Positions 22,869-45,339 of a stretch of DNA of 64,000 bases are shown piece by piece. Positions within the stretch are counted from its first letter, which is position 1, and every line of letters starts with the position of its first letter. The notes beneath the pieces are model-generated. The model searched no databases, had not been told where the DNA came from, and was given only the letters and a program-made list of their open reading frames with translations. The stretch lies in assembly GCA_963674595.2 (NCBI GenBank), contig CAXXFV010000014.1, positions 1 through 64,000 on the forward strand, read 5' to 3'. The DNA comes from a bacterium (GTDB lineage Bacteria; Zhuqueibacterota; Zhuqueibacteria; Residuimicrobiales; Krinioviventaceae). The position numbers and the translations under genes were made by a program.

Positions 22869-23002
22869 TTAAATATAATCTCCGTTCAATAGTCGACTCT
22901 TAATTCTTGTCGCTTTTCCAATTTATGAAAATAACAATCAAATGCAAGATAAACTTCCCAATGATTCTCGGAAAGTAATTTTTGATGGAGCGCTTCCCCT
23001 GA

Positions 23003-26000
23003 TCAGTTAGCGCGTCCGCAACAGTTTTTATATTTTTTACCGCTTCCGCAAGGGCAAGGATCGTTTCGTCCGACTTTTTTAGTCTTGACAATAGGAGCTG
23101 TTTTTCGCGGTTGAGTTCCTGCCTGAACCGGCGAAGCTTTACTTTGTTTTGCCCCCATAACCTGTTTAAAAACCTCAACCTGCGAGTGAGTCATATTGTA
23201 TTGTTGCGGTTCAACACGCCTTAATTGCTGCTCTTCTATTTCCCCACCGACATCAAACACTTTAAAGAGGGTACTAACAACATCCCTGTTAATGCTATCA
23301 ATGGTTTTGACAAACATTTTATAGGCTTCACTTTTATATTCAAGCAACGGATCTTTTTGTCCGTAACCTCGTAATCCGATACCTTCACGCAGTTCATCAA
23401 CACCACTCAAATGCTGACGCCAATTTTCATCAATTTTTTCCAGCACATAATAACGTTCATATCGGGTTGCAAGAGCAGAACCTATTTCATTTACCCGGTT
23501 TATATAAAGTTTTTTGGCCCATTCGCTTACCTCATCCAGGACAAGATTTGGGTCCAAGGCCTCATCACTTTCATCTCTGAGACGCGGGGCCTGACGAAAA
23601 ACGAGCCGGCAATCTGTTTCCAGACGATTTGCCATGTCAGGATCTAAAATTTTATCACTGTTCAAAACACTGCTTATAATGTTATAAATCGTTTCGTCAA
23701 TCATCATAAGAACAGAATCTCTAACAATTTCACTGCTTATTCGTTCCTGACGGAACCGTTCAACCCGGTCGGCATATACTTTATATAAATTGAGTCCCCA
23801 GGCTACCATTTGTTCGCGAAAGACAGCATAATCCTCATCTTTAGATCCACTTGGCAGGGCCTTGTCAGGTTTACTCAAAAACATAAAATCAAGCTGCTGG
23901 GAAAATAGTTTCTTTGTCTTTTCATCTGCCTTTGCATCTGTACTTTTGTTAACCAGTGCAATAATCGAAGCTTCTATCAATTCTTCAATTGTTGCATTCG
24001 CCAGCATAATATCGTTATAAACTTGAGAATATTTAGAAAACGTCTCAGAATAGGTCAAGCGGACCTGTTTCATTGTCTGGTTCTTTAAAGAATTTTCTGC
24101 TTCTGCTTCATCAATTGTGATATTAAACGGCTGTCCGAATACTTTTTCAAGGAAATCTTGCTGCTCTTTTATAAGTTGGTTGTTTTCTTGTTCATTAGGA
24201 GATCCCAATTCCTGAAAACAATGGTCAACAATAATATGAGCAAAGTTTATATTTGAAAAATATCCTAAAATCCGGTGCCTTATTTGATTTCCCTGTTCAA
24301 TATTTAAATGATCATTCATCCACTCCAAAACACGTTCACGAATGACCTCCCGTCGAATACTCTTTAATTCATTGCTGCCCAATGAAGGGACATCAAAAAA
24401 TATTCTTTCAATATCCTTTAAAAATTCATCGGTAGTCCAGGTAGCCGGCGAGCCTTTAGCATTCAAATGACGGTCCATTATTCCAGTCAGATAAATCCGG
24501 ATCATCTCTTTTATGTCCAGAGATTCAAATATAATTTTAGCTACAGAGTCAGTGCCATTTTCAACTTTATCAGAATAAACTTTTCTGCCCCAGGAGACAA
24601 TTTTTTCTTCCAAAGCATCAGCATCCGGAAGGTCTGTTTGGTTCATCAACCATTCCGGCCCAACACCTAAAATACGCTCAAATTCAAAAACAATACCTTC
24701 CAAATTCCATTTTGAGGTATCCCGGGAGCCGGCATTATGCAGTTTTATCTTTAATTTAATTAAAACGTCTAAAATATCATCAAGAGAGCAATAACCATAT
24801 ATACGATGCCGTTCCTGCATTTGATGCTGGTCTTTTTCCTGCTCAAGTTTACTTAAAACCCAATCCTGAATTTTTTCTTTAATTTCGCTCTGCTTTAAAG
24901 TTTGTAAATCTTCTAAAGTAAAATCAGGCTCAGCCCCAAAGAACTCTTTTAAATTTTCAATCAGTTCATCAAGTTTCCAATCGGTATGATCGTCCTCTTC
25001 TCCGAAAAATCGTTTTGTTTTTGATTCTACAAAATCTTCGGCCTGTGCGAACCCAAGCAGGTTCTGACGTCGTTTGTAAATAATTTTTCTCTGGTCATTT
25101 AAAACATTGTCATATTCCAGCAGATTTTTACGAATTTCAAAGTTACGTTCTTCAACCTTTTTTTGTGCTCGTTCAATAGACCGGGTAATCAGCGGATGTT
25201 CAATTCTTTCACCTTCTTGCATATCTCCAAGCCGGCTCATAACATTTGTAATACGGTCGGAACCAAACAGTCGCATTAAATCATCTTCTAATGACAAATA
25301 AAAACGTGAAGCACCCGGGTCACCCTGACGTCCGGCACGACCGCGAAGCTGACGGTCAATTCTTCGGGCCTCATGTTTTTCAGAACCTAATATTTGTAAA
25401 CCACCGTGTTTTATCACATCCGGAGTCAGTTTAATATCCGTACCACGACCGGCCATATTTGTAGCAATTGTAATTGAACCCGGCAAACCGGCTTTGGCTA
25501 CAATTTCAGCTTCGCTTTTATGATATTTGGCATTTAACACGGTGTGAAAACGACCGGATTCCAGTTCTTTGGTAACGTCACCTTTTTTCAACCAATTTGC
25601 CACCGGTATACCACGATGCGTAAATAAAGTACTTAGATGCTGAGAAACATCAACGGAAACCGTACCTATTAAAATGGGTAGCCCTTTTTCATGTAATTCC
25701 AATGCCTCATCAATAATAGCATCGTACTTTTCTTTTTTAGTACGATAGATAACATCATTATTGTCCTTACGGATAACAGGTTTGTTCGTTGGAATAACAA
25801 TTACTTCAAGTTCATATGTACTAAAAAACTCCTGCGATTCGGTTTCGGCAGTACCGGTCATACCGGCGAGTTTGTGATAAATTCGGAAAAAATTCTGCAG
25901 GGTAATGGTCGCCAGAGTCTGACTTTCAGACTGAACCTCAACTCCTTCTTTTGCTTCCAAAGCCTCATGTAAACCGTCGCTAAACCGGCGTCCCGGCATT

Positions 26001-29000
26001 AATCGACCGGTAAACTGATCAACAATCATAACGGCTTTGCGTCCGCGTGCCGTACCGGCGCGTCGCATTTCGCCTTCTTCTACTGCTTTAACAACATAAT
26101 CCACGTCGTTTTTATATAATGTATAGGCGCGAAGTAATTGACTTATATTTTGTACACGGTCTTCAACCTGCGAATAATCCTGCCAGAGTTTGTTACGCCG
26201 ACTTTCTAAAATAGCTCTGGGCTTTCTTTCAAAATGAATCCTGAACCAGTGCTCGATTTCTTCAGATGTCATTACAAAATTTTGAGCATGAGCATTGGCC
26301 AAAAGTTCATTCATTTCGCGTTCTTCAAGCATAATCCGTTTTGCACGGAGCTGTGCTTTGTCTTTCGGTAAAAGGGCATCAAGCTCCGAACGTGTGGACA
26401 CCTTTTTACTGGAAAAATGCAAAATATCATCGCGAAACGCTTTTAGTTCTTCATCATAACTGAAAAACGGAAGTCCATCAACCAGATACTGCCTGGCAGA
26501 GCTTAACAAACGTTTGGGAATTTGCTGTTCATCCAGTTCAAAAACAGAATCCGCATCAATATTAATATCATCCAAAAGTTTTACGAGTTGTTCCGTAACC
26601 TGAAAACGTTCATTTGCTGAACTGGTCAAACTTTTTATACCATTATTAGACAGTCCTTTAAATCTCAAATCACTGGAAGATTTCGCAGCCTGTCCGTTGC
26701 TGTCAAAATCTAAATAACGGCGTAAAAATCGTTGTTTCTCCTGGTCTGAAAATTCACTTCTTTTTATAGTTGAGAACAAACTCTTAAATACATTTTGTAA
26801 ACGTTCAACATCTTCAAAACGTCGGGATAAACTTGGTATATTATCATTATTAAAAGATGTTGCCAGATATTCATCCAGTTCGATTCTTAACTGGACTGAA
26901 TTTGCGTTCTCGTCAGCTTTATGGGTTTGCTGCCATTTCAGGATTTTTTCAGCCACACTCTTCAAGTTAAATCCCAAAAGTCTTTCTATTTCAGTATCAG
27001 CCAAACCAAGAATATTACCGTTTTCATCTAAATCAAATATTTGTTCAATTTCATTCGAATAACGTCCAAGGTCTTTATCAAGCAAAAGAACAATATCATT
27101 TACCTGCTGAGCAAAGTCCGACAAGAAATTATAACCCAGCTTTGAAAAGTCGAGCCGGTCTAAAGAGCCAACCTTTTCACGTTTGTAAAACAAAGGTTCC
27201 AGTTTTGATACATCTGTTTGTACATATTGATATATCTGAGAAATCTCTAATTGTAATTTTTCAGCAGCCTGAACACGGGCGGCATAATCAAAAGCAGATT
27301 GATTCAGGGTCCTGTCAAGTATCTGCTTTACTTGCCTATCCTGTTCTTCAACAAGGCTGCGGTCAGGTAAAATATAAATATCCGGATTTCCACCAAGTAA
27401 AGCAATTCTACCTTTTTCAGATATATGTTTTAAAACGGTGCCATTATCTGAAAATTCAAAGTATTCCTGGCGGCGGTCTTCTGTTATACTTTCAGATTGG
27501 GTTGTTTTCTTGTCATCAACAGACGAGCTGCCGGCTGTATCCAGCATGGATGCAATTTTTGAGATATAGGGAACAAGAAAGGGATCGCCCTTGCAAACCA
27601 TTGCAAACAAGGCAAGCTTGCCGCTTTCCGTCAAACCCGTTATAGCGCCTAATTGTTTTTCAACCTGGAAAAAAGTTTGAATAATTTCACGACGACGGTC
27701 CTGTTGCCCACGAGAAATCTGGCCTCCGGCATCAACATCGGCTATATTTTGGATGAGTTTTAATAAATTTTGCAGCTCACCGACAAATTGAGAAAAATCC
27801 TCAGATCCATCACTTTGTAAATATTTAGCACCACTCTCTGTCAGGTTGTTGACCATTCGGTCCATTCGTTTGGAAAAATTAAAATTTTCACGCCAGATTG
27901 AATTTTTATCCGTCCTTTTTTCCTGAACATCCTGAGAGATTTTAGTTTCCAAATTAGCAAAATGCTCAACAAATTTTTCAAGCTTTTCATAATCGTCTTT
28001 ACCCGGGCGTTTAGTAATTTGACAAAGCAGTAATTGCCCTTCAAAGGTAATGCCGTTACATAAACCCGATATGGGGTCAAGAGTAAAATATTGGGCCGGC
28101 TTTTTCTGTTCGCTTAAATCGTACAAGGCCTGATCAAGCTCATCCAGTTTTTGAATTTTTTCTGCAATATCCTGGTCACGTCCGCCTGATAAAAAGATAC
28201 GTCCTTTTTCAGTAATATCTAAAACATGGCTTTTTTCATCAATCGTATAATACAGTTCACCATCAACCTGACCCATGGTTTTATTGATTTCATGCTGCCC
28301 CAGAATTTTTTCAATCAGCTTTTTAACCCAAAACTCTGACGTTTGCAAGTCCAAAAGTTCCTGGTTTTTCGGATCACCACGTTGTGCCCGTAAAAGCATA
28401 AGACCGGCAAGTTCTTCGTCCTTTTCAAGTAAATCCTTACCTTCGCGGACAAATTGTTCCACAAGCTCTTTTTGTTTCGTGTAAAGATTGGAAACAATGG
28501 GTTTAAGTTCATAATAAATATTTCGTGGCGCACCAACAGCACCGGATATGATCAAAGGTGTTCGGGCTTCGTCGATAAGGACACTGTCTACTTCATCAAC
28601 AATTGCATAATGCAAAGGACGCTGAACAACAGACCATACATCTGTTGTCATATTGTCACGAAGATAGTCAAAACCAAACTCATTATTGGTCCCATAGGTA
28701 ATATCAGCCATATAGGCATGTTTTTTTTGTTCAGGGTCCAAATCACCGTAAAGTGCGGCGACTTTTAGGCCCAAAAACTCGTAAATTTTTCCCATCCACT
28801 CACAGTCACGTTGTGCCAAATAGTCATTCACGGTAATAAGGTGAACGCCTTTTCCTTCAAGTGCATTTAAATATAACGGCATTGTAGCGACCAGTGTTTT
28901 TCCTTCACCCGTTGCCATTTCTGCAATTTTTCCCTCATGCAAAACAATACCGCCGATAAGCTGGACATCATAAGGAATCATATTCCATTCAATTTCTTGT

Positions 29001-29272
29001 CCGCGTACCAACCATTTTTTGCCTAAAAGACGACGGCAGGTATCCTTAACAGCCGCAAAAGCCTCAGGTAATATATCGTCAAGCGTTTCGCCCATATTTA
29101 AACGATAGCGAAATTCATGGGTTTTGGCTTTTAATTCATCGTCAGTCAAGGATTTATATTTTTCAGCTATCTGATTAATATCTTCAACGATAGGACGAAT
29201 ACGTTTCAACTCACGTTCTGTGCTTGTCCCACCCATTATTTTGGAAAAAAACTGTTCTACTTTTTCTAACAT
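23003..29272 (-). CDS. secA: Preprotein translocase ATPase SecA, giant form (2089 aa)
   Basis: [65 protein letters not shown]; SEC-C motif [19 protein letters not shown]. Confidence 0.97.
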
Positions 29273-29396
29273 CTATTAAAACCTTTTTTTTGTTCAAATT
29301 CTCATAATTTGCCGTTAACATTGACATAAAAATTAACTTAAACCGTAAAACGGCACACTTACCTTATTTAAAAAGTATAACAAACAAGGTAAAGCT

Positions 29397-35607: not shown

Positions 35608-38600
35608 TTAATTGATCACAAGCATTTTTCTGTTTTGAACATACTCTCCGGCTTTAATTCTGTAAAAATAGATACCACTAGGGACATATTGTCCCAAAAA
35701 TGAACGCCCGTCCCAAACAGCCTGATAATAGCCTGCCTGTTTTTTTTCGTTAATAATTGTTTTTACTTTTTGCCCCAATATATTATAAATACTAATGTCA
35801 ACATTTTGAGCAGCAGGTAGTTGATATTTAATGGTGGTTGAAAAACTTGCATTTGATTTCAGTGATAACGGATTTGGATAGTTTTGTGCCAATCCATATT
35901 TCTGAGGAATAATATCAGACAAATTACCATCAACACCGGAAGTTCCAACATTTAATTTAATCAATAATGTTTGAACGGGTTTTTGAGGATCATTACTTTC
36001 AAAAACTAAAAGGTTCTGATACCCTCCCAAACTTAACCAATATGTATCAAAATAAAGGCGCAGAACAGTTGAATCATTTTCACCAATTATACCGGAATAT
36101 GTATCGGATTCATACCATGACGCATTATATGGCGCATAGGTAATATAATACAACCCATCAGAAGGTGTAAATTCTATATATTCCCCATTTGGTGAAAAGG
36201 CCACTAAAAATTTCATTTTACTATCGACAGCAATTTGCGAATGGGTTACGACAGATTCAAAATGATAATTAGCCCTGGTAACAGATACTGGCGATGAATA
36301 GGGTAATACAGGTGTAAATGCTCCTATCCCTTCGTCTTCAAGCCAATACATAACCTGACTTGTTTCCCACGTTAGCCTAATAATTCGGTCAATACCCAAA
36401 TCACGAAAAGGCATTCCGGTTAGTGAATCACAATCCGCATCAATCCAAATATCATAATTCATGTGCTGATAAATAGCAGCATTAACATTAAACTCTTGCC
36501 AAAAAGAAATGGTAGTGGCGTCATGTCGCATTAATACATCACCCAAAAGTTTCTCATCTGAACTTTTTGGGACAGTATAAACTCTCCGCCAATTCATTAC
36601 ACTTGATTCATTACTAATTGGCTCAAAAGCACTTTCTTTTCCGTTATCTTTATTCTTAATGGCTCCATTTAAAGGATATTTGTTTTCAAAAGCTGTAAAA
36701 ACAAGTGACCCGGTGCCGTTATTTTTTAAAATGACAGAGTCGCGGCGTATCCCATTTTGCTGCATAGACACAACAATCGTGTCACATACAATGGACAATT
36801 GAGGTTTATATAAAATACATTCAAATGTCGTATCATTTTGAACAATAACATTTTCATAAATATGTTTAGCATAACCTTGTGCTTTGACGGTTATTTGATA
36901 GGGTTCTTTCGGTAAATGAAACACAAAAGAGCCATCCGCTTGCGTAAAAATTTTTCTTTCATTGTTCACAGCTAAATCGACAGGTAACTTTTCAACGATT
37001 AGCTGGGCACCTGGAATCATGTTAGAAGATCGGGAGTCTGTTACATTGATATTAACCAAACTGGTTTTTCTAACAACCAACGGTATATCAAAATCCCAGG
37101 TAAATCCATGCTGGTCTTTAAAAACAGCATGTAAAGACGCGTCATAATAATCCGGGCAATTATCTGCAATCCTGACAACAAAATTATCTTCTGCTTCTTT
37201 TTGCCCCTTTCCGGGAATCGTTCCCCACACTGCGGTAGAATCTATAACAGTTACATTTTCATCATCAGAATACAATATAGCAGAAACAACAGTTGCCGGA
37301 AATGAACTTGTATTTTTAATAACAGGACAAAATTCTATTAATTCACCAGGATTTACATAGCCATCATTATTACCAATTCCCGGGCCATCATTAATATTAA
37401 TGGGAAAAACAGAAATTTTCGGTCGTTGGTCCAATGCGGCTCCCCTAAACCAATCAAACACATCACCGATAAACTGACTTTTTGATTGCAGGGAAATAAT
37501 GTTTTCAATTCCAAAGACACAATAGACAAGTTTATATGTCCCGTCATCAACAGCTAACGCTGCCGTACCGGAAGACTGGACAATACCTTCTCCGTAGCGT
37601 GGTTTGTATAAAAGTATTGGAAAGGCAGGTTCTATCGGATCAATTTCAACCGGCCAACTATTATTTTCCTCCTCAAGGCTCAGAGTATCCAATGTTACAA
37701 CGCCATTTCCGGGAACGTTTTCAATATGAAAAATTCTTGCAGATTCATTAATAAATTCGGAATGTAAAACCTCAGTATAAAACGGTTTATCATACAAACG
37801 ATATCCGACAAGTGGACCGGACAATAAAAGCCGGCCACCATTTTTTAAAAATCGTTCCAAATTTACCTGGTCATCGTCTGTTAATGTCTCAACCGGTTCT
37901 TTGCCGGTGAACCAGACAACATTTTCATACCCTGAAAGTTTTGAATAAGGAACTGTACCGCTACGATTGACAAAAAATAAATCGACGGACAAACCTATTT
38001 CAGAAAAAGCATAAAGATATGGCCAATAATTCTGCGCATCACCATCATCAATAACCAGTAATGTCTTTGGTTGATTTATCAAAACACATACGAGAAAGTC
38101 ACCCAAAAAAGTGCCGTCCTCTTCATACAATTTTAAACCAAATTCCAAATGATGCGGAGGTGCGTTTTCATCAATTCTAACCTGAAAAGGAGATTGAGTA
38201 TTTCTAAAATCATTTATTATAGTACTTGAAAAAACACTTTCATTTTGCAGTATTTCAACATAAGGATCATTGCTTTCAAGTAATCCTTTCAATCCATTGA
38301 CATTCCGAAATCCTGTGTTTTTTAATAACAGGTAAAGATTACAGGTTTCACCCGCCTCGGGTATTTCATCATCATCACCGTTCGTTTCCTGCGTTGAAAA
38401 ACTGATATACTTCATGTCAGGTTGTCGGACCCGAATAATAAAACTGTTTACCCACGTTTGACCTTCAGAAGATTGTAACATTAAATAAAAATTAACAGGA
38501 TGGTTATTTGGGACATCAGACGAAATTGAAAAAACAAAATTATCAAAACCGAACGATTGTACATTAGAGACCAGGTCACCATATAAAGCACTTGAATCAA

Positions 38601-40107
38601 TAATTGTTATAAAGGGGTCACTGGTAACCAACTCAGCCCGGACATCTGGCGCAGTTGTATTACCAATATTTTCGACTTGTATTGCCAGTTCAACTGTCTC
38701 TCCGGGTTCCAGATAGTTATTACCATTACCCTTACTTGAACCCAGGTTATCATCATCAATAATTTCGGAAACATAGGAAACATAAGCATCGTTAATATCT
38801 GTCGGCGGCCCGGCGACTGTTGCAATTGTCGCAACACCGGCCTTGACGACATCCGAAAAAAAGTCCATGTTTATATTTCCTAAAACATCCTGAACACTAT
38901 GATAATAAGGAGAAAAATCAGTTTCAATAGCAAAAACCGTATGATAACCATGGGAATAAAACGGATAATGATCACTACCGCCTCCCACATAGGGATATTT
39001 CACAGGCTCAATATTCGTGTACTGTGATAACATATCAATAAACAGGTCTGCAAATCCATTAGATGTCTCATCTGCCTCAACATCTAACTGACAAACGGGA
39101 TTATTGCCGCCGCAGTTTCCAATCATGTCAAAATTCAGATAAAAGCCTATATTAAGCCCATTCTGCCAGGCCCTGCTGACCCAATTCTGGCTGCCGATCA
39201 ACCCCTGTTCTTCGGCTGCCCAGCAGGCAAACATTACAGTTGTTTCCAGGTCAATATCTCTCAATACCTTGGCTGTTTCCAAGGCAGCTATGGTGCCGGT
39301 GCCATTATCATCAACACCAGGCGCCAAAATCATTGGATTGCTGCCGTCACCTACAATTGAATCATAATGCCCGCCGATCATAATAATGCTGTCCGGATAA
39401 ACCGTCCCCCTTTTTATTGCTATAACATTTCGTTGAATTTTATGTAAAACAGGAACTGACAATGTGTCAAAATAAACTTCATAGCCCAAGTTCTCAAATT
39501 GTTCATATAACCATTGTCCGGCAGAATAAACAGAGTCTGAACCTGAATAGCGTGTTTTAAAAGCTTCCAGCCGTGACAAACCATTGTATAAACTTGTTTG
39601 CGAAACCCGATTTACGAGAAAAGAAACAACAGAGTTATCCAGAGTAGAATTAAAGGCTCCGGCTTTTATTTTAGCGGGCTCAACAAACGGCAACGACTGC
39701 TTTTGCAATTTGTATAAAGAGTAACCCTGGGCTTTTGATATGGATAATTGTTGATCTGTTTTAGCAAGTTGCAAGTCATCATCTTTATAAATAATATTAT
39801 CCGATTCAATTTCCTGAAAAACTTGGCCGTTCTTTGTCAATACATAATAGGATTGATCCCAGGCTTGTTCGTCAATAATGGTAAAATCATACCCGCGTTC
39901 GGTTAAACTATTCAGTTTTTGTTTTTCAATTGTCCCCAGCAGAAACAAAGGAGAACGATAATTTAAATCCAAAATATCAGCAAGATCGGCAAGTTGGTGA
40001 TGAGGGGAACGTTCGATTTTAACAAGACATGTATTTTGCGGCTCTCCGGCAAAAGCGGATAATACAATAAACAAGCCCAAATAAATTGAAAATAATTTTG
40101 TTCTCAT
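35608..40107 (-). CDS. Large secreted M28 peptidase with Ig-like repeats and a T9SS-like/FlgD-Ig C-terminal domain
   Basis: Signal peptide; GGHYDS, GVDDNGTG, AEEQGLIGS, NFDMIG, SDH, YH; C-terminal QNYPNP...IYNILGQ...WDG...SGIYFY. Confidence 0.88.
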   Translation of the reverse strand: MRTKLFSIYLGLFIVLSAFAGEPQNTCLVKIERSPHHQLADLADILDLNYRSPLFLLGTIEKQKLNSLTERGYDFTIIDEQAWDQSYYVLTKNGQVFQEIESDNIIYKDDDLQLAKTDQQLSISKAQGYSLYKLQKQSLPFVEPAKIKAGAFNSTLDNSVVSFLVNRVSQTSLYNGLSRLEAFKTRYSGSDSVYSAGQWLYEQFENLGYEVYFDTLSVPVLHKIQRNVIAIKRGTVYPDSIIMIGGHYDSIVGDGSNPMILAPGVDDNGTGTIAALETAKVLRDIDLETTVMFACWAAEEQGLIGSQNWVSRAWQNGLNIGFYLNFDMIGNCGGNNPVCQLDVEADETSNGFADLFIDMLSQYTNIEPVKYPYVGGGSDHYPFYSHGYHTVFAIETDFSPYYHSVQDVLGNINMDFFSDVVKAGVATIATVAGPPTDINDAYVSYVSEIIDDDNLGSSKGNGNNYLEPGETVELAIQVENIGNTTAPDVRAELVTSDPFITIIDSSALYGDLVSNVQSFGFDNFVFSISSDVPNNHPVNFYLMLQSSEGQTWVNSFIIRVRQPDMKYISFSTQETNGDDDEIPEAGETCNLYLLLKNTGFRNVNGLKGLLESNDPYVEILQNESVFSSTIINDFRNTQSPFQVRIDENAPPHHLEFGLKLYEEDGTFLGDFLVCVLINQPKTLLVIDDGDAQNYWPYLYAFSEIGLSVDLFFVNRSGTVPYSKLSGYENVVWFTGKEPVETLTDDDQVNLERFLKNGGRLLLSGPLVGYRLYDKPFYTEVLHSEFINESARIFHIENVPGNGVVTLDTLSLEEENNSWPVEIDPIEPAFPILLYKPRYGEGIVQSSGTAALAVDDGTYKLVYCVFGIENIISLQSKSQFIGDVFDWFRGAALDQRPKISVFPININDGPGIGNNDGYVNPGELIEFCPVIKNTSSFPATVVSAILYSDDENVTVIDSTAVWGTIPGKGQKEAEDNFVVRIADNCPDYYDASLHAVFKDQHGFTWDFDIPLVVRKTSLVNINVTDSRSSNMIPGAQLIVEKLPVDLAVNNERKIFTQADGSFVFHLPKEPYQITVKAQGYAKHIYENVIVQNDTTFECILYKPQLSIVCDTIVVSMQQNGIRRDSVILKNNGTGSLVFTAFENKYPLNGAIKNKDNGKESAFEPISNESSVMNWRRVYTVPKSSDEKLLGDVLMRHDATTISFWQEFNVNAAIYQHMNYDIWIDADCDSLTGMPFRDLGIDRIIRLTWETSQVMYWLEDEGIGAFTPVLPYSSPVSVTRANYHFESVVTHSQIAVDSKMKFLVAFSPNGEYIEFTPSDGLYYITYAPYNASWYESDTYSGIIGENDSTVLRLYFDTYWLSLGGYQNLLVFESNDPQKPVQTLLIKLNVGTSGVDGNLSDIIPQKYGLAQNYPNPLSLKSNASFSTTIKYQLPAAQNVDISIYNILGQKVKTIINEKKQAGYYQAVWDGRSFLGQYVPSGIYFYRIKAGEYVQNRKMLVIN

Positions 40108-42102: not shown

Positions 42103-42345
42103 ATCTACTCCTGTAAAAACTATATTATTTGTAAATTTGATCATTGTAACATATTGTCATCAAGCATTATTCCCGGTGCAAAAAAATTTTTCTTTCTTGC
42201 AATTTATATGAGAAAATTGTAACGTTGCTTATAAAAATAATAATTTATTAAAGACAATATGGAACCAGAGAGATCATTCTACGTCTTATTTAATATCTAT
42301 TCCTTTCATCTTAAAAAAACGCCTATAAAAGGAAACAGATCAAAA

Positions 42346-45339
42346 ATGAAAATAAAACTAATTATATTGTCATTTATATTAATGCCGCTTTTGGGGTTTT
42401 CAGCCCAAAATTCAAACGAAGAACAGGACTTTTTTATTGCCAAAGGAATGTTCAGCGACCAATTGTATGATCTGGCGGCTACCCAATTCAGTGATTATTT
42501 AAAAAAACACCCGTCAAGTCCTCACGCTGAAGAAGCACATTTTCTATTATCCGAATGCTATTTCCAATCGCAAAACTATGCCAAGGCTGTTTCTTCCTAT
42601 AGAGAACTATTGGTTAATTATCCGGCCGTAGGTTTAAGAGACAAAAGCCAGTTTCGTATCGGAGAAACATTGATACACCTGGGAAAATACCGCGAGGCGG
42701 TGTCTGAATTTGAAACGTTTTTTAAATTATATGATGATAGTCCGTTAAATACAGACGCCCATTATTGGTATGCCGAAGCCCTCTATCACCTGGGTGAGAA
42801 TGATAAAGCGCTTGAGAATTATACACTGGTTTATAAAAACGCACCAAATAGTGCCCTGGCAGACTATGCCTATTATTCATCGGCCTATTTATATGAAAAA
42901 GCAAAAAAGTGGGACAAAGCCCTTTCAATATACAAAGAATTATTAAAAACCAAACCAAACAGTCCGCTTGTTGCACAGGCTTCCTACCGGATTGGTTTTA
43001 CAAGTTTTGGACAAGGAAATTATCAAAAGGCAACTCAATTATTATCAAAAGCAATTCAACAATATCCAAAAAGCGACCTGCGTGGTGAAGCACAATATTT
43101 TATCGGCGAATGTTTTTTTAAAGAAAATAATCTTGATAAAGCTATTCAAGCCTATCAAATTATTGCCAATATGGCCGGGCATGAATATGCTGATGACGCG
43201 CAATACAGCACCGGCTGGGTGTTATACAAACAGCAAAAATATCTTCAAGCCGCTGATGCTTTTAAAAAAGTACTGACACTCAGTTCGGACGAAAATCTAC
43301 TGGCATCATCATGTTTTCAAACCGGACGAAACCTGGTTCTCGCTAATAAAATTGACGAGGCAGCCCGCTATTTTAAAACAGTCATAGAAAAATATCCGGA
43401 TTCTCAGGACACACCAAATGCGTTATTTGAATATGCTTCTTTGCTGTTTCGTTTAAAAAATTATGCAGAATCCCGAACATATTTTATGACAATTGTAGAT
43501 AAATATAATAATGCGGCTGTTGCAGCCGAGGCATCCCTGATGGTGGGTGAATGTTTTTTGGCTGAAAATAATTTAAAAGACGCGGAACTGGCTTTTGAAT
43601 ACACAAAAGAAAATTTTAAAAAACCAAAAATAACAGCAAACAGTGTTTACAAGCTTGGCTGGCTGCAATTCAAAAAAGCAGACTATGGCGTTGCATTAAC
43701 AAATTTTAAAACTGTTATAAATACAACATCGGAACACAATGATGATGCTTTGTTTTGGTCTGCTGAAACATATTACAGAACAGAAAACTATAAAAAAGCG
43801 TATGATCTTTATCTGGAATATACCCAAAAATACCCGGATTCCACACGAATTACCGAAGCCTATTATGGTTTGGGTTATGCCGCGTTAAAAATAAATGATT
43901 TTACACAGTCTGCCCTTGCATTCGGTAAAACGGCTGAACGAACGTCTGATGCCGAAGTTAAGGCCGATGCTGTAATTCGTGAAGGTGATGCCTGGTTTAA
44001 TGCCAAAGAATATACCAAAGCGATTCAGGCATATTCCACGCTTACATCCATAACAAATGACGTTAACTTGCTGGCAGAATCTCACTTTCAGATGGGCCAA
44101 TGTTATTCCCGGACTGGTGAATTGTCAAAAGCACGGTCTTTTTATGAAAAAGTTCTGCTTGATTTTCGAACATCTCCGCTTGCCCCGGAAGCATTATTTC
44201 AAAGCGGACGCACAGCTTTTAAAATGAATGATTACCAGGCCGCTATTGTGGACTTTGACGAATTATTACAACGATTTCCTGAAAATGAATTTGTTGATGA
44301 TGCTATATATGCAACCGGCGACTGCTATTACAATCAGGGAAAATATAATGAGGCGGTTGCCCAATATCAAAAGCTCATAAACGAACATCCAAACAGTGAG
44401 CTTGTAGACGAGGCTGTCACCGGCATGCAATGGGCCATGATGCAGGCAGGAGATTCGGACCAGGCGTTAAATGTTGTCGATTCCTATGTTAGTAAACTGG
44501 ATGATAAAGATAAAGCTGCACAGCTTATTGTCCGCAAAGCAGAATTTGCAAAAAATCTTGAGCAGTATAACCAGGCCATTGAACAATATAATACGGTTCT
44601 TTTAAAATATGCCGGCACAAAAGCCGCTAAAAATGCTTGTTTCGAAATCGGAAATTGTTATACAAGTCTGGGTGATTCAACGGCCGCCATCGGATCCTAT
44701 AACAGGCAATATCAAAATTTCCCAAAAGCAGAACGGACACCGGATGCTTTATTAAAGGCAGGAGATATTTATTTAAATCGTAAAGAGTATGACAAAGCAT
44801 TAGAAACCTTGAAAAAACTCACTAACGAATACCCAACACATGAGCTTGCCGGTACTGCTTTTGTTAAAATCGGACAGATTTATCACATCCAAAAAAATCC
44901 GGAACAAGCCCAATCCAGTTTTCAAAAAGTTATTCATGATTATCCAAAGAGTTTGGATGTCTATTCGGCAAAAATTGGTCTTGCCCGTGTTTATATCGAA
45001 CTGAAACGTTTTCCAAACGCACAGGAAATGCTGGAAAATGTTCTGGATAATGCTCCGAAAGAAACAGCGGCCGAAGCACAATTTCTTATGGGCGAAATGT
45101 ATCAGGGTCAGGATTCCTTGCAGGACGCTGTTGTCGCATATTTAAAAACAAAATATCTTTATAGCGATCAAACAAAATGGGTTGTTAACAGCATTTTTAA
45201 AGCTGCTGAATGTAATGAAAAACAGGGCAGACTCGCCGACGCACGCAGACTGTACCAATCCATATTAAAAGAATACCCGGCAGAAACAACCTTTGTTAAT
45301 CTGTCAAAAAAACGACTTGAAGAACTGGTTGGACAATAA
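42346..45339 (+). CDS. Large exported TPR-repeat protein (about 1000 aa, CpoB/BamD-like repeats)
   Basis: Signal peptide followed by continuous TPRs with recurring YPxS...A-x-Y/F-x-x-G pattern. Confidence 0.9.
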   Translation: MKIKLIILSFILMPLLGFSAQNSNEEQDFFIAKGMFSDQLYDLAATQFSDYLKKHPSSPHAEEAHFLLSECYFQSQNYAKAVSSYRELLVNYPAVGLRDKSQFRIGETLIHLGKYREAVSEFETFFKLYDDSPLNTDAHYWYAEALYHLGENDKALENYTLVYKNAPNSALADYAYYSSAYLYEKAKKWDKALSIYKELLKTKPNSPLVAQASYRIGFTSFGQGNYQKATQLLSKAIQQYPKSDLRGEAQYFIGECFFKENNLDKAIQAYQIIANMAGHEYADDAQYSTGWVLYKQQKYLQAADAFKKVLTLSSDENLLASSCFQTGRNLVLANKIDEAARYFKTVIEKYPDSQDTPNALFEYASLLFRLKNYAESRTYFMTIVDKYNNAAVAAEASLMVGECFLAENNLKDAELAFEYTKENFKKPKITANSVYKLGWLQFKKADYGVALTNFKTVINTTSEHNDDALFWSAETYYRTENYKKAYDLYLEYTQKYPDSTRITEAYYGLGYAALKINDFTQSALAFGKTAERTSDAEVKADAVIREGDAWFNAKEYTKAIQAYSTLTSITNDVNLLAESHFQMGQCYSRTGELSKARSFYEKVLLDFRTSPLAPEALFQSGRTAFKMNDYQAAIVDFDELLQRFPENEFVDDAIYATGDCYYNQGKYNEAVAQYQKLINEHPNSELVDEAVTGMQWAMMQAGDSDQALNVVDSYVSKLDDKDKAAQLIVRKAEFAKNLEQYNQAIEQYNTVLLKYAGTKAAKNACFEIGNCYTSLGDSTAAIGSYNRQYQNFPKAERTPDALLKAGDIYLNRKEYDKALETLKKLTNEYPTHELAGTAFVKIGQIYHIQKNPEQAQSSFQKVIHDYPKSLDVYSAKIGLARVYIELKRFPNAQEMLENVLDNAPKETAAEAQFLMGEMYQGQDSLQDAVVAYLKTKYLYSDQTKWVVNSIFKAAECNEKQGRLADARRLYQSILKEYPAETTFVNLSKKRLEELVGQ

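Follow-up and report, generated by a model that had tools for sequence, protein, structure and literature searches.

The window analysed here, a 64,000-nt stretch of contig CAXXFV010000014.1, carries on its minus strand (23003..29272) one complete open reading frame (ORF) of 2089 amino acids (aa; P0001), whose sequence identifies it as SecA, the protein-export ATPase, here from an uncultured bacterium. The best explanation overall, and one held with considerable confidence, is that the protein is a housekeeping motor with an enlarged wing, a SecA whose single helical wing domain (HWD) became an array of six HWD-derived modules. Ordinary SecA proteins comprise 800-1100 residues, and the extra length of this giant form sits at two sites, the wing array and a second, repeat-built insert on the side of the preprotein cross-linking domain (PPXD). 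An earlier note, made from the sequence alone, had proposed about six tandem copies of the wing domain; the count holds, the fifth copy being the least secure.

The Walker A motif MATGEGKT is located at aa 119-126, and the DEAD-like NBD1 and the RecA-like NBD2 are both present in the giant SecA. The protein scored above the cut-offs of two NCBIfam models, PRK12904 (968.2 bits, cut-off 814) and TIGR00963 (896.5 bits, cut-off 800).

The array lies within the helical scaffold domain (HSD), between its long helix and the IRA1/two-helix finger, and is flanked by conserved motifs; this is the site occupied by the ordinary HWD. A conserved 10-residue motif ending at aa 1406 is separated from VLEKIDENW, beginning at aa 1943, by 536 aa (about 540 in the earlier estimate), and 20 ordinary SecAs from this phylum have about 93-105 aa in the equivalent interval. 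The array (aa 1408-1942, DNA 23447-25051) was cut at motif landmarks into the units U1 to U6. All six recurring motifs pointed out in the earlier note were found, at aa 1431, 1521, 1611, 1704, 1792 and 1884, spaced by 88-92 aa. The Trp-containing helices noted in most units were recovered as IQDW, IVSW, VLEW, MVAW and VSEW in U1, U2, U3, U5 and U6, with none in U4, and the junction RQNLLGF (aa 1402) does recur as RHRIYGY (aa 1488) and RHRILGY (aa 1665).

The similarity of the units to one another was assessed in two ways. In the single-sequence test, comprising Smith-Waterman alignments with 300 shuffles per unit pair, the z scores were 13.9 for U1-U3, 6.1 for U2-U5 (0/300 shuffles scored as high), 5.5 for U1-U2, 3.6 for U3-U5 and 3.5 for U2-U3. 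U4 showed no significant match to any unit in this test and U6 reached a z of only 2.3-2.7 against U2 and U3. The internal modules are 10-26 % identical to one another, and a BLASTP search of the array region against itself returned the identity match only. For the second approach unit profiles were built from 39 full-length family members and compared with each other by hhalign. All 15 unit pairs aligned in register and seven of them had P values below 1e-4: U1-U3 (8.4e-16), U1-U2 (2.6e-10), U2-U6 (9.7e-9), U2-U4 (1.1e-8), U2-U3 (3.1e-6), U4-U6 (1.2e-5) and U5-U6 (5.6e-5). The next pair was U3-U5 (1.1e-4), and the seven weaker ones included U2-U5 (2.7e-4, also in register). As a control, 15 further segments of 88 aa were taken from the same alignment and compared with seven profiles; the lowest P among these 105 comparisons was 1.9e-4, so none fell below 1e-4. 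The repeat detection suggested in the earlier note, carried out by shuffled alignments and by family profiles, therefore found the units similar to each other.

The units were also compared with a profile of the ordinary HWD, derived from 20 SecAs of the phylum and the second SecA of this genome. U1 (P 9.3e-12), U2 (4.2e-10, 82 columns) and U3 (2e-7) matched it in register, and U6 matched it over 91 of 93 columns (4e-11). The direct match of U4 was weak (3.8e-4), and this unit is tied to the HWD via U2 and U6. Because of these P values against the other units and against the ordinary HWD, with no control below 1e-4, U1, U2, U3 and U6 can firmly be taken as wing-derived, and so, mainly through its links to other units, can U4. 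For U5 several weak but mutually consistent, in-register signals point to the same origin, which is the least certain of the six.

The structure prediction called for in the earlier note gave three helices and a loop in all six units. The AlphaFold2 model of aa 1340-2010, made with 29 aligned sequences, had a mean predicted local distance difference test score (pLDDT) of 86.9 and a predicted template modelling score (pTM) of 0.79; for U2-U5 alone the values were 90.4 and 0.84. According to DSSP, a module of helix A, turn, helix B, loop and long helix C is repeated six times in the model, with helix A of 12-18 residues, a turn of three residues at the Trp, helix B of 11-15 residues, a loop that contains a short helix in some units, and helix C of about 27-34 residues. 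Helix C of U5 is continuous with helix A of U6 (model helix 473-531). When the internal units were compared with 48,161 chains, the wing region of E. coli SecA ranked first, with a modest Z of 7.9. A Foldseek search of U2-U5 against the PDB gave nothing at E <= 0.001; SecA (2fsf_A) was the first entry, at E 0.23.

The ~265-nt periodicity described in the earlier note exists at the protein level and not at the DNA level: neither Tandem Repeats Finder nor a direct-repeat search detected such a repeat in 23000-29300 or 23400-25100. This periodicity thus survives only in the protein, as a relic, and does not reflect a recent duplication. Comparison of longer blocks gave P 4.5e-20 over 163 collinear columns for U1U2 versus U3U4, 7.6e-12 over 97 columns for U2U3 versus U4U5, and 1.2e-5 over 155 collinear columns for U3U4 versus U5U6. 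A quick maximum-likelihood tree was prepared from 13 copies of each unit and 10 ordinary wing domains (91 columns; 16 of 28 loci and 11 of 21 ordinary sequences were left out by even spacing), in which many forks were unresolvable. The unit positions formed clades, with Shimodaira-Hasegawa-like approximate likelihood ratio test (SH-aLRT) values of 96 for U1, 90 for U3, 100 for U4, 100 for U5, 98 for U6 and 93 for the ordinary domains; U2 was paraphyletic, with U4 nested within it. The tree paired U1 with U3 (87) and U6 with the ordinary HWD (79), and left U5 unplaced (28). To judge from these comparisons, the array is the product of tandem duplication that predates the diversification of the order. 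They can be read as follows: U6 would be the original wing, the copies would have diverged to two types, a two-unit block would have been copied at least once (U1U2 to U3U4), and the units would not have been homogenised since the order diversified. The U1U2 to U3U4 block copy is the clearest step and probably the latest.

That the array was created during assembly can practically be dismissed. The genome is metagenome-assembled, consists of 37 contigs and has an estimated contamination of 5 %, but there is no DNA-level repeat that could be collapsed or expanded, and the layout is identical in 40 other genomes. Moreover, contigs of three other studies are collinear with the array without a single gap, over 23003-26316 (38 substitutions), 23886-27995 and 23740-25664 (12 and 6 substitutions).

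Some results weigh against six wing-derived modules in a housekeeping motor; those that concern the origin of the units are considered here, and the rate of evolution, the second SecA of the genome and the charge of the array are taken up below. The Pfam model SecA_SW stayed under its cut-off on every single unit. The per-unit search with this hidden Markov model, proposed in the earlier note, touched U1 (E 0.0045) and U3 (E 0.11) and found nothing in U2, U4, U5 and U6. The ordinary HWD profile does not match U5 directly (P 0.048), and the best links of U5 to other units (5.6e-5 to 2.7e-4) are near the best control. These data could mean that there are only four true wing copies (U1, U2, U3 and U6) and that U4-U5 is a helical insertion of other origin and similar length, the more so as U4 is itself only weakly related to the ordinary HWD and has no helix-C Trp. 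An atlas look-up of U4-U5 produced scores of only 0.81-0.87; one of the clusters is named SecA Wing/Scaffold fragment and one has PF07516 in 35 % of its members, which is a lead and not proof. A separate origin of U4-U5 is nevertheless quite unlikely, given the in-register profile matches of U4 to U2 and U6, its nesting with U2 in the tree, the collinearity of U1U2 with U3U4 and of U3U4 with U5U6, the single-sequence match of U2 to U5, and the three-helix pattern that U4 and U5 share in the model.

The layout of the array is fixed. In 39 full-length proteins U1 measured 85-87 aa, U2 88-90, U3 87-89, U4 80-88, U5 86-89 and U6 always 95. The ratio of nonsynonymous to synonymous divergence (dN/dS, Nei-Gojobori), computed unit by unit for eight fairly close pairs, was 0.00-0.40 in all 40 cells with unsaturated dS (of 48). 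By these measures the six units are kept in frame, order and length under purifying selection, and the view of the earlier note that the amplification reflects selection rather than accident agrees with a layout fixed in 40 of the 42 other genomes of the order and with dN/dS not exceeding 0.40. The units change much more quickly than the motor, which counts against the proposed reading: their mean pairwise identity is 0.24-0.57, that of the motor 0.75-0.92. Being the least conserved part of the protein, the units could be neutral structural filler that persists only since its excision would break the fold, and according to the available part of PMC7503281 the length of the HWD varies among SecA and SecA2 proteins. 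Filler is an improbable explanation, however, in view of the low dN/dS in every computable cell and of the constant number, order and length of the units in order members that are down to 36-38 % identical in the array; in addition, a second lineage seems to have evolved a comparable array on its own.

A search with the array region retrieved 43 other proteins with 38-51 % identity and full coverage; 39 of the 44 proteins, the query included, are 2049-2111 aa long. The source name of two of them is candidate division KSB1 bacterium. Among 167 genomes of the phylum the array was found in 41, this one included, all of one order: 40 of the 42 other genomes inside the order have it, versus 0 of 124 outside (the latter include the unpublished G158 and G162, on which no claim rests). 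The matches span query residues 1-2 to 534-535, with the exception of G096, where the contig is cut (query 1-127), and the giant SecA frames are 2060-2166 aa long where uncut by a contig end or a stop. The two order genomes with no array match are 78 % and 89 % complete, and one of them, G098, does carry the N-terminal half of a SecA of the giant type, located where a contig ends. Outside the order, SecA frames measure about 1020-1180 aa and SecA_SW matches each of them once, without interruption. The comparison of copy number across related genomes, which the earlier note had recommended, thus gave six units in 40 of the 42 others of the order; no intermediate numbers were seen among the 167 phylum genomes, among 44 matches of a word-index search (proteins of 1148-3656 aa) or among the best 150 of 584 matches of a profile search.

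The giant form is the only SecA seen in 39 of 43 order genomes, including the complete one-contig genome G085. SecY gave one match in each of the four genomes checked (G000, G084, G085 and G089). Since most order genomes show no other SecA and SecY is single in 4/4, the giant SecA is a housekeeping motor and not an accessory SecA2. An extra, shorter SecA-like gene is present in four order genomes (G000, G089, G090 and G092). The genes in G089 (L056, C5:2291585-2293063), G092 (L057, C166:6286-7734) and G090 (L055, C22:273-1694) have frames of 795-856 aa and are 45-47 % identical to the ordinary SecA of this genome, in the first ~500 residues only.

It is a point against the housekeeping role that the present genome (G000) also encodes this ordinary SecA, in a 934-aa frame at 838.5-841.2 kb of contig C23 (within locus L054, C23:837038-842689). 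Together with the shorter genes of G089, G090 and G092 it could suggest a SecA2-like, accessory role for the giant protein in the translocation of special substrates. The extra SecA gene, however, has 50.5 % GC versus 39.3 % for the giant gene and lies in the last 220 kb (~730-950 kb) of the 951-kb contig, where the GC content rises abruptly, from about 0.38 to about 0.50; the tetranucleotide usage of the 24 kb around it correlates with the genome at r 0.43, and every whole contig reaches at least 0.95. This tail is either foreign DNA (a very large island) or a chimeric join or contaminant. It holds no second nusB, recJ, hprK, hpf or smg, only a topA-like match of 25 % identity. A SecA2-like function is very improbable also because the giant form stands alone in 39 of 43 order genomes, one of them complete, because SecY is single and there is no SecY2 in the four genomes checked, and because the SEC-C tail is kept and the HWD multiplied, the opposite of what the accessible text of PMC7503281 reports for SecA2.

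The second amplification in the same protein, the insert of ~620 aa on the PPXD side, interrupts the PPXD of the giant SecA. It matches itself at offsets of ~55-73 aa with profile P values of 6e-7 to 9e-5, and its mean pairwise identity across the giant SecA family is 0.47.

Of the SecA domains the HWD is the least understood; it lies at the periphery and several roles have been assigned to it. The portion of PMC7503281 available describes it as an HSD insertion made of three helices plus a loop, which contacts the PPXD in the closed state and on which the mobile preprotein-binding domain (PBD) rests; it holds target-binding residues and touches the C-terminal part of SecY and lipids. Extracts of two further papers state that the PBD shifts toward the HWD upon ATP binding (PMC6123708) and forms the substrate-gripping clamp (PMC10465204). 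A tentative proposal, somewhat short of an even chance, is that the array enlarges this clamp. The ATPase, the clamp and the finger would work as in any SecA, and the six modules would pack as one rigid helical arm that multiplies the HWD surface beside the preprotein clamp, namely the PPXD docking site, substrate contacts and possibly SecY or lipid contacts. The arm probably acts with the PPXD-side array; because the PBD side carries its own repeats, both jaws around the substrate path would be enlarged, which would suit extra holding or guidance of the substrate, or extra docking or oligomer contacts. The charge of the array speaks against part of this proposal: it is net acidic, about -5 per 100 aa, and direct binding to anionic lipids is therefore disfavoured.

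The array could instead be a docking or oligomerisation platform that binds a second SecA or another component, for example the ribosome, SecDF/YidC or a chaperone. Modelled SecA dimers are joined by a PPXD/HWD cross-interaction (PMC7503281, as far as its text was available), and it is the PPXD side and the HWD that are both amplified in the giant protein. Of four genomes checked with the Pfam model of SecB, three (G000, G084 and G085) gave no match, which leaves room for a built-in substitute. The genes next to the giant secA, on the other hand, are unrelated housekeeping genes (recJ, nusB, smg, topA, xerC/D, hpf and hprK); no Sec gene was found among these seven scanned neighbours, and no partner gene is linked. 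A platform is somewhat unlikely, if with a real chance of being right, and it overlaps with the enlarged motor rather than excluding it. A further idea, unlikely as it stands, is that the wing is an autonomous binding module that can be stacked and that different lineages of bacteria multiplied independently, giving a long arm opposite the PPXD-side repeat array; the two arrays together would equip SecA with a built-in holdase or antechamber in which unfolded or very long substrates could be kept. The holdase role is played elsewhere by separate chaperones such as SecB.

The features of the giant SecA are collected in Table 1. Pfam SecA_SW matches in two stretches, the second of which, aa 1841-2005, corresponds to profile positions 47-199. 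Elsewhere in the window large ORFs are found at 35608-40107 (-), 1499 aa, and 42259-45339 (+), 1026 aa.

Table 1. Features of the giant SecA in protein and window coordinates; identities of the array and its flanks refer to 39 family members
Feature	Position in protein (aa)	Position in window	Strand	Evidence or remark
SecA_DEAD PF07517	secA protein			Pfam 5e-123
P-loop_SecA PF21090	secA protein			Pfam 1.4e-67
Repeat-built insert, preprotein-binding-domain side	~330-950	26423..28285	(-)	internal profile matches
SecA_PP_bind PF01043	1012-1106			Pfam 2.2e-16, profile 47-110 only
SecA_SW	secA protein, two stretches			Pfam 5e-56
Long scaffold (HSD) helix leading into array	1360-1407	25052..25195	(-)	identity 0.92; helical in AlphaFold2 model (model residues 21-66); superposes on SecA scaffold helix
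U1, A-type	1408-1494	24791..25051	(-)	helices aa 1411-1422, 1434-1445, 1461-1494
U2, B-type	1495-1583	24524..24790	(-)	helices aa 1497-1513, 1524-1535, 1551-1580
U3, A-type, sister of U1	1584-1671	24260..24523	(-)	
U4, B-type, most variable	1672-1759	23996..24259	(-)	identity 0.24; no helix-C Trp
U5, least certain copy	1760-1847	23732..23995	(-)	three helices in model
U6, nearest to ordinary wing, adjoins IRA1	1848-1942	23447..23731	(-)	identity 0.57
IRA1/two-helix-finger part	1943-2005	23258..23446	(-)	Pfam SecA_SW; identity 0.79; superposes on solved SecA C-domains
SEC-C zinc-binding motif PF02810, C-terminal	2069-2087	23012..23068	(-)	Pfam 2.3e-9

The unit profile was searched against 1.84 billion representative proteins and 584 of them matched at E <= 0.001. 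Among the best 150 of the 584, multiple clear unit matches were confined to the giant-SecA family and to a second multi-wing lineage of metagenome proteins, represented by the fragments P0048 and P0192 and the full-length cluster members P0193 (1698 aa) and P0194 (1563 aa). Two other proteins with several matched stretches, P0074 and P0098, were rejected as unrelated repeat proteins. P0048 has eight matched stretches, and in P0193 the stretch just before IRA1 shows the motif W[DNE]xxx[LIVMF] nine times, mostly at intervals of 61-72 aa; 12 of the 28 P0193 segment pairs gave a Smith-Waterman z of at least 4. As in the giant SecA, the HWD-like run of the P0193/P0194 lineage directly precedes IRA1, but it has more units (about nine to ten), each of a smaller size (about 61-72 aa); they match weakly (independent E-values of 1e-5 to 1e-2) and over the helix A-Trp-helix B half of the profile only, and the IRA1 is just 39-40 % identical to that of the giant SecA. 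The nearest named relatives are Myxococcota-type metagenome-assembled genomes (MAGs) with one unit. Another relative of P0193, a 2063-aa SecA-like frame (L089) from a MAG labelled Anaerolineae bacterium, gave no match to the wing-unit profile, and its extra length therefore lies elsewhere. The P0193/P0194 array looks like an independent origin, and amplification of the wing domain seems to have happened at least twice.

A sole SecA that keeps six wings under purifying selection throughout an order would imply that the wing does something dosable, and it provides natural material on which the structure can be studied and domain deletions tested. It also presents a clean case of domain amplification in a universally conserved machine, with a history that can still be read: one unit, two, then a two-unit block copied. 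On the practical side, the giant secA doubles the expected SecA length. Annotation and marker-gene pipelines can mishandle such genes because single units mostly escape Pfam SecA_SW. The literature searched, from which subscription journals were largely absent, yielded no account of tandem wing domains or of any giant SecA from KSB1.

Among known systems the closest is the ordinary HWD, as in the SecAs of E. coli (2FSF), B. subtilis (6ITC/3JV2) and T. maritima (3DIN). It is inserted at the same site of the scaffold, has the same pattern of three helices and a loop as the array units, and shares with them the motif W-x3-L-x3-L-x3-F...P followed by a long helix with Trp/Tyr; it is a single module of about 93-105 aa, whereas the array has six in series over 536 aa. 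The ancestor of the giant SecA was probably a long SecA of the PRK12901 type, known from the same phylum and the FCB-group (model length 1118). This model gave the giant SecA its top NCBIfam bit score, 1065.4, yet under its cut-off of 1493; the frames of sister orders, of about 1020-1180 aa, are of this length, with one contiguous SecA_SW. The signature inserts of thermophile SecAs (50 aa and 76 aa), as presented in the available text of PMC7023208, are likewise lineage-specific, selected and placed in an essential SecA, but their site is the ATPase domain, none of them duplicates a SecA domain, and the 440 extra residues of the array exceed them in length roughly 6- to 9-fold. In SecA2 proteins such as those of M. 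tuberculosis (4UAQ) and C. difficile (6SXH) the HWD is also the part that evolution varies, following PMC7503281 in the part available. In many SecA2 proteins described there the HWD is shortened and the C-terminal tail is lost, whereas in the giant SecA the HWD is multiplied, SEC-C is kept and the protein is the sole SecA in most genomes.

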